This document shows, one piece after another, positions 51,301 to 57,300 of a stretch of DNA of 64,000 nucleotides (the stretch's first letter is position 1; each line of letters opens with the position of its first letter). The stretch lies in assembly GCA_963727775.1 (NCBI GenBank), contig CAVSHB010000001.1, positions 288,001-352,000 on the forward strand, in the 5' to 3' direction. This DNA is from an uncultured Nitrospiraceae bacterium (GTDB lineage: Bacteria; Nitrospirota; Thermodesulfovibrionia; Thermodesulfovibrionales; SM23-35). Made by a program: the position numbers.

Positions 51301-54300
51301 GGAAAGGAGATTCCTCAGATCCCGCATCTTCGGATCCGGATATTCATAGAATAGGAATTTCCCTTGGGAAATGAGGTCGGCTACGTTAGAGGAATCCTTG
51401 GTGTCGTGCTTATCCCATCTGCCATCCAGAAGCGTGCGGTTGTTTTTTACTGCCGTCCCCGCTACCAAAACAACCATATGCCCACACTTAATAAGATGCT
51501 CTCCCAGAGGCTTATGGTAATTGGCTGTGGGCTCAAGACCAAAGACCACCTTTGTAAGGTCATGCTGGACCTTAAGCGCTTCTGTCAGCGTCAGCAGTTT
51601 CTCGAATCCTTCAATCGTGTTGTCAAAGATCACTCCCTTGTGCAGCGTTTTGCCGTTAGCCGTGCCGAAAAAGGCATTGTGCTTCTCTTTAGCCACGTCG
51701 ATGCCGATGATCAAATACTGATCGGAGCCACGTATCTCTTTCTTGACTTGTCGAAACTCCCTAAGTCTGATACCATCTACTTGTTCCATAGAAACCTCCT
51801 GTCAAAAGAATTTTGTTTCTCCATAAACTTATTCTTACAGGAGGTTTCTATTTTTTAATAGCTATAAAATTAGTCTCCCTTATGATTGAATGGGGAAGTT
51901 TGATCTTATGCCATTTCTATATATAACTAAGCCGGTGCGCCGGATATGGGGATTCGATTAATTCTCCCGGAACTTTTTCTATCGAAGAGGATATGGTTTA
52001 TGGAGCATCTGTCTTATTTTGATCTGCATGAGATCATCCTGATACGAAAATTGAGGCTGAGATTGCGACCATTGCAGCTGGATAGTATCCCAAGGTCTGA
52101 TTTCAGACAATAGGGGAGCATAGCGAAACAGGATGCTGTTTTCGCAGGTTGATAGAGCTATGATTTTTGAGCTATCGCCGGTGTGCATCAGTATCGATCC
52201 GGAGGGCTATTGCACCTGGAAGGGAGCAAATACTCAATCGTGACCATTGTGCCCTTCTTGCAAACCGGGCAGGTATTGATATCGATACCGTAGATTCTGA
52301 GCAACTGATCCTGCCAGGTCTCTGATTTTTCTTCTTCTTCTTCTTTTGTTTCGGTTTTACAACTGCCGATGAGCTTACGGCATAGCGCGATGTTGTCTTT
52401 ACGCTTTCTGTTTGCGAGGAGTCCGAAGTGCCTGATTTATGTTATATATTCACTTATGTTGCGTCGTTTGTGAAAGGCCTTGTTATTGCACAATGTCATC
52501 GTTAACGACACAACATAAGTAAATCCCTCTTCGGGTTAAAGTGCTTTTAAGAATGCCATCAACCCCGGCTGATCTTTCCACCGTCTTGATTGCTCTGAAG
52601 TAAATATCTCACAGTGGGCAAGTGCCTTTGCCTTCATTTCGAGATCGACCTCAGCATAGACATTTGTGGTATCTAGCGACACATGCCCCAGCCATGCACG
52701 GATTGTATTAATATCCACACCTGCGCGAAGAAGGTGAACTGCGCAGGAATGACGAATTATATGTGCACTGACTCTTTTCGTTCTCATTGAGGGGACTTTG
52801 TTGCTTGCTTTGATAACATAACGCCTAACGAGGGCATGAATGCCGAAGCGAGTGATTGTCTGCCCCCGACAGTTGAGGAAAACCTGTTCGCTATCCTGGC
52901 GATCGGCAATGAGAGTGCGTAAAGTATTGGCTGTTAAAGACCATAAAGGACAGATTCGTGTCTTGCCTCCCTTGCCTTTAATCTTGACTGAAAGCGAATA
53001 ATCCAGGTCGAGATCGTCTACAGTCATATTCGCAGCTTCATGGGCGCGGGCGCCAGTATTGTAAAGAAAAAGAAGTACGGCATAATCTCTAAAGCCTTGT
53101 TTGGTGGAAGTAACGGGAGCATTAAGCAGGGCATCCATTTCTTGTTTGTCGAGATAAGACATCGCAGCCTTTGCAGTTTTTTTGAAAGGGATAGCTCTGA
53201 TCTGTCCACACCAGATGATGTGTTCCGGACATCGTTCGCCGATAAAACCGGCGAGGGCGTGAATTGCGGCAAGGCGCTGGTTGCGAGTGGCTATAGAACA
53301 GGATCGATGCTCCTCTATATAAAGCAGAAAAAGACGAATTACCTCAGGGGATATATGCTCTACAAGCAGCTTGTCTATAGGTTTTCTGACCTTCTCAGCG
53401 ATGAAAGGGAGCATCAAGGCCAGAGCATCGCGATAACTGGATTGTGTATTTAGCGACAGATTACGCTCTTCCACCAAGTATTCCATAAGGAAGCGTCGCA
53501 CCCAATATCCGATAGAAGTTACGTTAGACATGATTCACGTCCGATAGAACATAATGTTCAAAACGCAAATTTGCTTCCCGCAAAAGATCAGGAGTCATGC
53601 TCAAATAGCATTGGGTCTCCGCCACATCAGTATGGCCCAAATAGGTTGATAATTGAGGCAGCAAGCGCTGGACATCAGCGCCTTCCCGGTACCAGGCTTC
53701 AAGACGGTGAACTGAAAAAGTGTGACGAAGGTCGTGAATCCTGGGATAGTATCGAGTGCCGTCCCGGCGAGGCATCCCGGATAGGTTTCGCAAACGACTG
53801 AAAGTTTTTTGCATGCGGCCATAGGATAAAGCGTGGCCAGTGCGTGTGGCAAAAAAGGCGGAATCTTCCTTAAGTCGGCAGGGCAACAGTCGCCTTTTTC
53901 CCAGATAGGAGTCAAGGTGGTCAGTTAACCGAGGGCCGATGGGTACGAGACGTGTCTTATAGAATTTGGTATTGCGCACTGTGATAAGGCTATCCGAAAC
54001 GTTAACATCAGCAATCGTTAGAGAAAGCGCTTCGCTGATACGAAGGCCTGTTCCATAAAGGGTAAGCAAAATGGTTCGGAAGGTGGTTGCCTGAAGAGGA
54101 CTTATTGGGGATTTAAGCGAGTTGGTAGCGGAAAGGAGGCGGTGCAGTTCCTCGGTGGTGTAAATATATGGTTCCAGAGTCGCCGGACGTTTAGGTACCA
54201 TCTTTGGAAGCGGAGACTTGTCGATATGACCATGGGTCAGAGCAAAGCGATAGAAACCACAGAGGACTTCATACTTCCGGTGCCAGAAGGTAGTGATCGG

Positions 54301-57300
54301 ACCTTCACCTGCAAGGAATGCTGCTGCAGTATCGGGATTAACTTCTTCGATCTCTATATTGCCCATAGCTTTGCAAAAAGATCTGAGTACCACAGCATCA
54401 GACCGGTAACACATACCAATGGACTGTTTTAGCGACACATACTCGGTAACAAGTTCTGAGAGTTTCATTCCAGCCCTCCCATATCAAACTTAGCTACCTC
54501 GCGAAGACCTGACAGATTCACCTTGGCATAGATCCTCGTGGAGAGAGAACTTCGATGCCCTAGGTGATCGCCGACCTCCTTGAGGGAGAAGCCCTCGGCA
54601 ACCAGGTGGGCGGCGCACGCATGCCGCAATGAGTGGGGCCCATGATGGTGAGTGCGTATCCCGAGCTTCACCATTCTGTTACTGACCACAGGATAAAGTG
54701 CTCCTAATGAAAAAGGACGATATGGGGGCAAGAGAGTGAGAAATATCTCTCGATATGAAGAGTGGGGACGCACTTCCTGTAAATAGCGGATTATCGCGTT
54801 GCCTACTATTGGGATCAATGGGTATGTTTGTCTTCCTCTCAGCTTAACTCGGGGTACCGACATAAGTCTCTGTTCCCAGTCGATATCGTCAAGCCTGAGA
54901 GTTGCTACCTCAGTTGATCTCAACCCATAGATCGCAAAAAGCATCACGATGGGTTTGTCTCGTATGTCACTGGCTTGATCTGTCTCCATGCTCTCTATCA
55001 AGAGTCTCACGTTTCCCCAAGATGGTCCCGACGGCAATTGTTCTTGGGCAAAGATACGAGGGCCACGTATATCGGGGGCGATTGAAGACGAACACCACCC
55101 CCGTGAAGCCGCGTACTTGAAAAAGGCCTTCAGCGCGGTCGCCATGTGTTTAACCGATATGCGACAATTGCCCTTGTCACCGTAATGGGTAAGAAACGCG
55201 TCAATATCTTTGAGGCAAACGGCTGAGATATCACAACTCCGAGTGCCATACCAGCGTAGAAACCGTTCAACGTAAGAGCAGTTCCCTCGGATAGTCTGAG
55301 AAGTGAACCCTCGTTCGTTCTTCATCCATGTCCTGAAATCTTCAAGCAAATGACCAAACGGAATGGAAGTATCTTCTCTCCAACAGCCCAAAAAACGTAG
55401 CCACGATCTTGCTGCATTGACAAAGCGACTGCGAGTACAGTGCGGATTAAGCGCTTTTCCCCAATATCGTTCCCGTTCTGTCCATCCTCGGGCGACAGCT
55501 TCGACCTGATTCAGGGTTACTCCGTTTTCAAAAGAAATACGTAGCTTCTTTGCGACCCATAAAAGTTCTCGCGCAATGTTCTGTAAAGTCGAGAGAGAAT
55601 ATCCTTCTTGCTCGCAGTGCTTAAGATAACGCTCCCTCTCCTCTTTGTACGGGGCCTTCTTGTGACGGGATAGAATTGAGAGTTTTGTGTAAAGCTTTTC
55701 AAACATGACCGGACCTCCTCTAATAGAGACTTTCCAGCCATATAACGGCAATTACTTATGTGTTGTCAAATCAAAAATAATCATTGCAAATTAAGAAAAT
55801 TGACTGACTTCACAACATAAGTGAATACATAACATAAATCAGGTTATGTGTTTAAGCACATAACCTGATGCGCACAAATCGATGCGGAAGCACATGAAGA
55901 AGGAACCTTCTTATGAACTCATCGGCCTTAAGAGTCATGATCTTTTGTTTATCACCATCGGCATAGTCCCGCCAGCGGAAGGAAACATTGCCGTCTTCAA
56001 CGTTTAGGACACGATTATTACTGATAGCAATCCTGTGGGTATATCTGCCCAGATACTTGAGGACACCCTCGGCGCCGTCAAAAGGCGGCTTGCAATATAC
56101 AACCCACTTCTTATGGTAGAACTGTCCTCTGAACACCTCAAAGGTTCCGGGGTCTTTAAGATGACGGATACCGCCAGGGAAGATAAGATCACCTGATTCA
56201 AACCTGTTTTTGAGATGGTCCAGGAACTTGCCCCTGAACAATGAGGACATAACCCTTACAGGCATGAAAAAACCTTTCCTGCACGATACCCAATGTTTTC
56301 CATCAGGTGACAATCCGCCGCCGGGTACGACACAGTGAATATGGGGATGATCCATAAGGTTTTGTCCCCAGGTGTGAAGGATGCCGATAAAGCCTGTATG
56401 TGCGCCGAGGTGTTTCGGATTATTGGAGAGCTCCATAAGTGTCTCGGAGACTGCCTGAGCGTATGTGGGCTTACTGGTTTTGTTATGCCGGCGCGCTCTT
56501 TGGCCTCAACGAATATCTGTCGTATTGTACTTAGACATACATGAGCTCCTTCCTTTTGTCAAACAACCAGTCTTTCGGACGATATTCTCTCCAGTATTGC
56601 CTCAGACACTCAAGAGCGGTCTGAGACAGGATGGTGTAACGGTCTTTGCCCCCCTTGCCTTGCTGAACTCTTACCATCATCCGCTTGCTGTCGATATCGC
56701 TTACCTTAAGGTGTGCTGTTTCGCTTATCCGGAGGCCTGCAGAATAGGTAATCGTCAGGATCGCCCGGTGCTTTAGATTCTCCATGACGGAAAGCAAAGT
56801 CTTGACTTCTGCCAAATCCAGAACCACAGGAAGTTTGTTTTTCCCTCTGGGACAATGAATCTTCTCCACGACCTCTTCCCGTTTTAACGTGTGCTTATAT
56901 AGAAACTTCAAACCCTGGTAATAAAACCGGTATGTCCCCTTGGCCAACTTCCGTTCGTTCAAAAGATACAGCAAATACTCTCTGAGTTCCTTCTCTCCAA
57001 GTTCCTCCGGCGACTTGCCGAAGTACTTTGCATAATTGCTTACTTCCCTCAGATAAACCTTTTGGGTCTTGGGGGTAAGTCCCTTCAACTGAAGCTCTGC
57101 CAACATCTGTTCTCTCAATGTGCTCATATCCAATCTCCTTTGAATCGATATGCGCCGACGAAGGCCGACGGGGAAACAAAGGAAATTGTAAAAAGACTTC
57201 GATTGTTCAACAAGGGGGGGAATAGCAGACTAACTTCTACAACTCAGAAAAAGGTCTATCTTATCCAGAAAAGGCTCACGCCTCGTTAACCACCGCGCAG

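Follow-up and report, generated by a model that had tools for sequence, protein, structure and literature searches.

A RIT element in IS91-family Y2 transposase genes of a Nitrospiraceae bacterium, probably moving by a circle with two mirror-image sites

The RIT element, its recombinase genes and its ends

The window analysed here, a 64,000-nt stretch of contig C1 of an uncultured Nitrospiraceae bacterium (window position 1 is C1:288001), carries within 52431–55870 an intact RIT element (ritABC) of 3,433 bp, including a 20-bp palindrome. Three adjacent and co-oriented genes on the minus strand each encode a tyrosine recombinase: ritA (54465–55706, 413 aa, intact in this copy), ritB (53524–54468, 314 aa, overlapping ritA by 4 bp) and ritC (52536–53531, 331 aa, overlapping ritB by 8 bp). 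RitA, RitB and RitC all matched Pfam PF00589, and each contains the catalytic motif, seen as H-x-x-R-H and, by eye in the translations, LGH-x8-Y. Their Pfam and NCBIfam profile matches included no RIT-named profile. Earlier reports describe RIT elements from Cupriavidus metallidurans CH34 and pHG1, seated in IS66 tnpA, a Tn6049-like transposase gene and radC (PMC2864759, PMC3414803), with overlaps of 4–8 bp between the rit genes (PMC3414803). The present element resembles known RITs in its three co-oriented tyrosine recombinase genes, overlaps in that range, a length close to the usual ~3,500 bp, terminal inverted repeats that border on a palindrome, near-identical copies in one genome and insertion in genes of other mobile elements; it differs in having an IS91-type Y2 target at a defined codon pair. 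RitA of RITs has two core-binding domains (PMC8138268). Here, hhalign aligned the N-terminal 112 aa of RitA with a Pfam SAM-like domain at 41% probability (E 2.7e-4; control 0.3%) over 27 columns, and BLASTP gave no match.

The inverted ends are 31 bp long and 97% identical (52431–52461 and 55813–55843), within the ~28–34 bp of RIT terminal repeats, and in both CATAA is followed by a 6-bp overlap. On the ritC side, crossover overlap 'c' (52431–52436, minus strand) encodes Ile-Arg in the Y2 frame, and the adjacent end (52437–52520) has an outward CATAA-N12-CATAA pair and an extra inward-facing site at 52510. The ritA-side end (55750–55837) has an inward extra site at 55756 and an outward CATAA-N12-CATAA pair at 55816–55837. 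It is followed by overlap 'a' (55838–55843, plus strand), the 6-mer of a complete internal CATAA-N6-TTATG site, hereafter the spare site. The palindrome (55844–55863) comprises two back-to-back half-sites with 7-bp arms around an asymmetric 6-bp centre (55851–55856). Beyond it lies crossover overlap 'b' (55864–55869, minus strand), which again encodes Ile-Arg and differs at two of six positions in the copy on contig C3.

The survey's finding that the palindrome is brought in by the element was borne out. In run X1, where empty alleles occur beside filled ones, a contig joins 52431 to 55865 and is exactly 3,433 bp shorter, and the palindrome was absent at 28/28 Y2 loci of other genomes that reach the motif (30 were examined, leaving out the genome's own and one ending short of the motif). 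Both observations rule out that the palindrome belongs to the target.

The target in the host Y2 gene

The element splits an IS91-family transposase gene on the minus strand. The 5' piece (55864–56436), whose N-terminus is deleted, matched PF04986 (E 3.8e-62) and NF033538 (E 8e-72; 242 bits against a curated cut-off of 125) and ends at NF033538 position 301; the 3' piece (52188–52436), starting IRHFGLL and bearing a C-terminal CxxC, begins at position 300 (positions 300–355, E 1e-08). A truncated integrase gene at 56531–57133 (minus strand) is 71% identical in amino acids to its C3 counterpart. Common ends with differing flanks at three places (C1, C3 and the end of C1) suggest that the host element extends over 50071–57311 (minus strand), with a terminal hairpin near 50071–50110 and an internal IS110 gene at 50497–51789 (PF01548/PF02371). 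Like integrase-Y2 elements of the IS91 type, it has an integrase gene, then an NF033538 transposase gene, and a terminal hairpin; here it is the target and not the mover, and the interrupted Y2 genes of both C1 and C3 were already broken upstream.

Insertion had been placed at codon ~326 in VRIR|HFGLL. The site stood up, with an Ile-Arg codon pair encoded by 20/20 junction 6-mers of the close family on five distinct 5' and five distinct 3' flanks, but the motif proved wider than RIRH alone, and the codon number is that of intact paralogues. Junction comparison supports a conserved (F/Y)V(R/K)-IR-(H/Y)(F/Y)G coding stretch of integrase-Y2 transposase genes as the probable RIT target. The genome also has three KIRHFG paralogues that carry no insertion, which shows that the motif is not sufficient by itself. 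A by-eye look for a target dyad resembling the element's half-sites gave nothing convincing.

All six close metagenome relatives, on distinct contigs and 85–95% identical in DNA, were flanked by Y2 sequence at these codons, as previously reported; both orientations occurred, and the Y2 alleles hosting them were diverse. A further claim, that several distant relatives lie in IS21 genes, was not sustained: one did (L176), and the others had other targets. Intron domain-V-like flanks of L004, L017 and L173 were not confirmed by Rfam gathering scores. Genome searches found no close relative, the best match among 390 class genomes being 72% identical; the element search returned one stretch in GTDB and none in IMG/VR. 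The general site pattern matched 7 of 401 phylum genomes, with two matches only in G000. On genomic evidence, the element moves as a unit, with near-identical copies at two places, many target alleles and an exact empty allele.

Two copies in opposite orientation

The C3 copy (215054–218465) is 99.854% identical to the C1 copy and, as the survey described, lies in opposite orientation between the same Y2 flanks. The elements differ by four substitutions and a 1-nt deletion that frameshifts ritA in C3, and the flanks by 2 differences in 579 bp (5') and 4 in 2,360 bp (3'). Where the element is turned round between C1 and C3, the 6-bp centre of the palindrome is reverse-complemented along with it; at the copies' divergence, two such point changes would arise by chance with a probability below 2e-6. 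The earlier proposal that the element flips between its ends is therefore unsupported for this pair, since inversion between the ends would leave the palindrome outside them unchanged, as DNA outside an invertase system remains. The alternative named with that proposal, two independent insertions, comes nearer the mark, and the sequences suggest how such insertions come about, through a circle that can open at one or the other of two mirror sites.

Opposite orientations could in principle also result from a collapsed repeat that was wrongly assembled: C1 breaks off 9 nt inside a third junction of the same kind, and among 50 RIT contigs, five with two palindromes and two with none show that collapsed copies can mis-join. 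However, the C1 and C3 copies can be told apart by five internal positions, by each of the two flanks, by the centre of the palindrome and by the outer 6-mer, and both orientations occur in independent samples, which makes this explanation very improbable.

The outer 6-mer of C1 is identical to its spare 6-mer. We do not take this outer 6-mer for a sure excision footprint, because the X1 empty allele and 3/28 other empty alleles carry the same 6-mer.

Palindrome frame and 6-mers among RIT elements

The palindrome kept the element's frame at 25 of 29 scorable RIT ends, against a mean of 8.6 exceptions under a random-frame null (P about 0.01, with copies that are not independent of each other). 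L158 (both ends), L173 and L157 share the frame of C1 and C3, and L157, only 72% identical, carries the same asymmetric palindrome at an unrelated target. The four exceptions were L190, L097, L084 and L260; L190, 95% identical to the element, has its palindrome in the opposite frame. In 8/8 groups seen at both ends, the palindrome was mostly reversed between ends, and in 5/5 two-member groups it was reversed. The count covers metagenome and IMG/VR contigs, since in complete plasmids two element queries found no match and the pattern had 0 matches in five plasmids, where RITs use variant half-sites. In the other RIT family of this genome, the palindromes are set apart by single changes only and are uninformative on frame.

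Among 43 one-palindrome elements, the two outer 6-mers were identical in 23, in 13 of which the spare 6-mer differed, and unequal in 20, perhaps partly through chimeric assembly. Outer 6-mers showed on average 0.98 mismatches within elements versus 4.3 between elements. In 29/43, the spare 6-mer was not that of the far end.

A circle with two mirror-image sites

These patterns suggest that the element is a RIT-type transposon working site-specifically through tyrosine recombinases, which targets Y2 genes and probably moves by a circle with two mirror-image sites. On excision, the far end would be linked to the palindrome, and the joint of the resulting circle would hold two mirror-image CATAA-N6-TTATG sites, either of which could serve integration. 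With either site usable, the palindrome would in every case lie 5' in the target gene relative to the element; the rit genes could face either way, and the centre would turn with the genes. The unused site would persist as a complete spare site bearing the 6-mer of an earlier target, and mismatched 6-mers may be tolerated in the exchange, by analogy with Tn916 coupling sequences. Ile-Arg is encoded in frame by all the 6-mers, so that the reading frame of the host gene should be regained on excision no matter which of them stays behind. The C1 and C3 copies would then have integrated one through each site, whether the host element was present twice or the RIT was excised and entered again, and their orientations fit re-entry from such a circle better than flipping in place. 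Several observations count against the model: the four frame exceptions, the 20/43 elements with unequal outer 6-mers, the empty KIRHFG paralogues, a junction in run X4 joining the ritA end of a 95% relative to non-Y2 sequence, and the identity of the C1 outer and spare 6-mers, which a template switch inside the palindrome could also produce.

Such a template switch also figures in the main alternative, that a single insertion was followed by inversion in place between spare site and far end, the reversed centre and changed C1 6-mer having arisen separately. Both copies could invert, their spare and far-end 6-mers being identical, and the C1 junction is a perfect palindrome except at its centre, the trace expected of a template switch. 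The four minority-frame elements, one a close relative, allow occasional flips in the family, and the genome's other RIT family has its core facing opposite ways beside one same inserted element. However, this course takes two events whose outcome chanced to agree with the frame seen at four junctions in other relatives; if flipping alone were at work, both ends should read alike going outward, which was the case in 0/5 two-member groups; and in most elements the spare and far-end 6-mers are unequal. We consider it unlikely for C1 and C3, and inversion in place possible but rare in general.

A free two-site circle may also be lacking altogether, the intermediate being hairpin-ended, for example, or a strand-biased copy-out product, with the palindrome rebuilt at each insertion. 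Nielsen et al. (PMC5737581) report exonuclease-resistant RIT DNA, with circles unmapped and hairpin intermediates proposed, and we found no circle joint in four contig sets, which hold assembled contigs only and so say nothing about its absence. SE/GInt elements share several tyrosine-recombinase-like genes, specific targets and an exchanged 6-bp footprint, but have four genes and copy out without an empty site, and the accessible text describes no mirror second site (PMC10214605). This alternative seems quite improbable here, as palindromes are inherited, identical asymmetric ones occurring at unrelated targets, and empty alleles stand beside filled ones in run X1.

Discussion

RITs are widespread, and the accessible literature gives their mechanism as not deduced and their ends as not fitting the usual core and arm sites (PMC2864759, PMC3414803); the two-site circle is a testable model, in which, unlike in known RIT descriptions, the palindrome is read as another crossover site that bears a frame marker. 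A close parallel is Tn916, a tyrosine-recombinase system whose short coupling sequences are exchanged independently of homology, with a circular intermediate such as we propose; Tn916 uses one integrase plus Xis, one circle site and loose AT-rich targets (PMC5812530), whereas the RIT would use three recombinases and a pair of mirror sites, with a target strictly defined in coding sequence. Neither an IS91 target nor a two-site circle is described in the portions of the RIT literature that our search returned. Ricker 2013 reportedly treats the RIT palindrome and both orientations and may cover part of this ground. Our comparison corrects the reading of the locus as flipping and shows that one RIT lineage has specialised on two conserved codons in the genes of rolling-circle transposases, from which it should excise silently. 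The C1 element suits experiments: its three genes are intact, its target is short and well defined, and its palindrome holds a natural asymmetric marker that separates re-integration from inversion.

Related integrase-Y2 elements also lie inside RIT crossover sites: 3/3 such elements in this genome, G324, Paraburkholderia plasmids and the end of the X4 95% relative, hinting at targeting in both directions. More speculatively, and with considerable doubt, RITs might form a distinct class of tyrosine-recombinase transposons with a mirror double attachment site and a spare site that remains live after integration and captures other DNA, this family and integrase-Y2 elements targeting each other. 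In that case the RIT would silence and reversibly restore the Y2 gene at the Ile-Arg pair, and an integrase-Y2 subfamily would insert precisely into RIT spare sites; if the two-way targeting is true, it would clearly exemplify mutual parasitism between two classes of mobile element. An IMG/VR search for the integrase-Y2 terminus found none, and one relative of these elements is annotated 'ISAzo26 family'.

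The RIT element and its insertion site in IS91-type Y2 genes

The element (window 52431–55870) consists of three overlapping minus-strand genes, all encoding tyrosine recombinases (ritABC), bracketed by 31-bp inverted ends; the window positions given in the survey's finding were correct, but the 320000 offset attached to them was not, the window being C1:288001–352000 of genome G000. The second copy (C3:215054–218465) is 99.854% identical: it has four substitutions, and a deletion of 1 nt shifts the reading frame of its ritA. It lies in the opposite orientation with the same flanks on either side (5′, two differences over 579 bp; 3′, four over 2,360 bp). 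Both flanks are pieces of one IS91-family transposase, with the junction at positions 300–301 of NF033538. The host 3′ flank occurs a third time (C1:1571830–1574198), identical over 2,360 bp, at the end of contig C1, which breaks off 9 nt into a RIT junction; this break may reflect a mixture of filled and empty alleles or a collapsed repeat.

An end-pattern search of metagenomes returned 48 stretches representing 45 loci, among which seven loci on six distinct contigs (L158, L173=L174, L178, L179, L188 and L190) are close relatives with 85–95% DNA identity; the remainder are distant relatives or chance matches, and no close relative was found in the genomes searched. In all six, the insertion point is the Ile-Arg codon pair within (F/Y)V(R/K)-IR-(H/Y)(F/Y)G, which bears out the survey's proposal of site-specific insertion in Y2 genes. 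Profile matches confirmed the flanks of L158, L173, L178 and L190 as Y2; L188 shares its flank with L173, and the flank of L179, for which the profile search gave no match, was assigned to Y2 by eye. All 20 junction 6-mers encode Ile-Arg, in five codon spellings and over five distinct 5′ and five distinct 3′ flanks. The element is a real RIT, and its new target, the IS91-type Y2 gene, is well supported. Two observations speak against strict targeting: three KIRHFG paralogues in G000 are empty, and a 95% relative in metagenome run X4 has its ritA end joined to non-Y2 sequence. Relatives at 60–75% have other targets, namely genes for IS21 (L176) and ISAs1 (L175) transposases, an ATPase gene (L160), DUF72 (L145), a DruA-like gene with a score under the cut-off (L003) and a group II intron (L157). 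Related RIT families at L004, L017, L173:100–170, L213, L147 and L219 lie in sequence with a resemblance to group II intron domain V; confirmation of an intron by Rfam was limited to L157 and to another part of the L147 locus.

A palindrome brought in by the element and probable two-site integration

In both copies, the order along the Y2 gene is 5′ flank, outer 6-mer (b), 20-bp palindrome, spare 6-mer (a), core, far outer 6-mer (c) and 3′ flank. Each core end reads CATAA-N12-CATAA followed by a 6-mer, and the palindrome has the form TTATG-N10-CATAA, so that a complete CATAA-N6-TTATG site, the spare site, lies between palindrome and core; at each outer junction a half-site meets target DNA. 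The spare-site 6-mer of L173 encodes Ile-Arg yet differs from both outer 6-mers of that locus. In one contig of metagenome run X1, position 52431 directly abuts 55865, and the missing 3,433 bp comprise the core, one 6-mer, the spare 6-mer and the palindrome. A class-wide Y2 search gave matches in 54 of 390 genomes, and 29 of the 30 Y2 loci examined reach the motif: the locus in the window is the only filled one, the other 28 being empty and devoid of a palindrome. Because the X1 contig skips the palindrome and the 28 empty loci lack one, it is the element that brings it in, as the survey had held.

The survey also had the element flipping between its own ends, which the palindrome contradicts for this pair. 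In C1 as in C3 it lies towards the 5′ piece of the Y2 gene, but its asymmetric 6-bp centre is reverse-complemented between the two copies, turning together with the core. An inversion between the ends would leave this centre as it is because the palindrome lies outside them, and the chance of two such changes at the copies' divergence is <2e-6. We regard integration of a circle through either of two sites, with rare flips allowed, as the likely replacement for flipping: the circle joint would read end, 6-mer, palindrome, 6-mer, end and thus offer two mirror sites, and opening at one would yield the C1 arrangement and at the other that of C3. The joint was not seen among the assembled contigs examined. 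The same palindrome frame occurs in L158 (both ends), L173 (with a variant centre) and L157, and the palindrome of L190 is not in this frame.

Ricker (2013) reportedly discusses the RIT palindrome and both orientations. Published work describes RITs with 4–8 bp gene overlaps, a length of about 3.5 kb and a 28–29 bp inverted repeat with an overlapping palindrome, located in a Tn6049-like transposase gene and radC (PMC3414803) or in IS66 tnpA (PMC2864759); one paper calls the mechanism undeduced, with circles that could not be mapped and hairpins proposed (PMC5737581), and according to a 2023 table (PMC10214605) neither target specificity nor movement had been tested. Neither an IS91 target nor a two-site circle was found in print in the literature searched, and the value of the finding is that an untested mechanism becomes testable.

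The palindrome and 6-mers across RITs

The pattern of end, 6-mer and palindrome matched at least 124 stretches in IMG/VR, a set enlarged by further searches, and the palindrome is therefore a general RIT feature. Among the matches listed are 214 distinct ends, of which 135 have a palindrome, asymmetric in 70 and with a labelled ritA or ritC end in 52. A hand tally of frame was confined to labelled ends whose asymmetric palindrome recurs unchanged at another such end (29 ends in nine groups); 23 labelled ends with no such match and 18 unlabelled ones were left out. The frame was kept in 25 of these 29 listed ends, the exceptions being L097, L084, L260 and L190, against a mean of 8.6 exceptions for random frames (P about 0.01, overstated since copies are related). 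In all five two-member groups among the matches listed, the palindrome is reversed between ends, where flipping alone predicts none. The four exceptions show occasional uncoupling of the palindrome from the core, via inversion in place or micro-inversion of the centre.

The 50 distinct complete elements among the matches listed, a set found via the palindrome and biased towards its carriers, include 43 with one palindrome, five with two and two with none. Of the 43, 23 have b equal to c, and a differs in 13 of these; a equals only c in four and only b in five, and all differ in 11. This is the pattern of integration through one site, the other site keeping a relic 6-mer, with mismatches tolerated at exchange as described for Tn916 (PMC5812530). 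Contigs with a palindrome at both ends or neither (L028, L056, L070, L158, L253; L162, L176) have two 5′-type or two 3′-type flanks, and are either collapsed assemblies or products of recombination between oppositely oriented copies. The end–palindrome overlap is 5 bp rather than 6 in L175 and L183, and L153, L155, L183 and L209 are non-autonomous miniatures of about 350–450 bp with both ends and sometimes a palindrome.

Two-way nesting of integrase-Y2 elements and RITs

G000 has a second integrase-Y2 family with three intact members (L277–L279; C1:20614–23600, C3:339430–345150 and C2:570964–574170), all of which lie inside the spare site of the genome's other RIT family, between palindrome and core. 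Because the outer 6-mers of these composites match and their flanks differ, the second RIT family appears to carry the integrase-Y2 elements; its core in C3 is oriented opposite to those in C1 and C2, and two cores are miniatures of about 330 bp. What adjoins the ritA end of the X4 relative in place of Y2 is this second integrase-Y2 family's terminal hairpin, the same junction is found in another genome (G324, L295), and at the ritC end, on a different X4 contig, 38 nt resemble second-family Y2. Among eight Burkholderiales plasmid copies, the 5′ end was obtained for six: it lies within a RIT site in L220, adjoins RIT-like ends in L304 and L305, is doubtfully placed in a RIT site in L308 and lies outside one in L309, and the element at L306 (NC_010625.1) sits in a CATAA repeat, a tandem array with a 9-bp unit. 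Some ten further 5′ ends obtained in the class search, and likewise the host family of the present element, are outside RIT sites, so the preference is limited to one integrase-Y2 subfamily. The nesting loop rests on different element pairs, closure by the same pair not being among the observed cases.

History of the host locus

Element and host flanks have diverged about equally, and one terminus is common to the three host copies, whose neighbours differ. The host may have spread first and then taken three hits; alternatively, it took a single hit and spread, after which one copy re-entered by the other site. The C1 outer 6-mer equals the element's own; empty alleles carry the same 6-mer, and the match is therefore no proof of excision. 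At window 56448–57133 the host element is chimeric, with a Y2 piece 99% like that of C3 and an integrase 71% like C3's in amino acids, and the C-terminus of the integrase and the N-terminus of Y2 have been lost to a deletion there. Two distinct genes for IS110-family transposases (window 50497–51789 and 57467–58729), each with more copies in the genome, lie one within the host element and the other adjoining it. About 150 bp past the host terminus (window about 49875–49925; C1:337875–337925) is a 51-bp repeat, possibly attC- or REP-like, with >20 copies genome-wide, another of which is about 2 kb from the copy at the C1 end. An orphan palindrome at window 30640–30690 has TTATC/GATAA-type arms and falls outside this RIT family.
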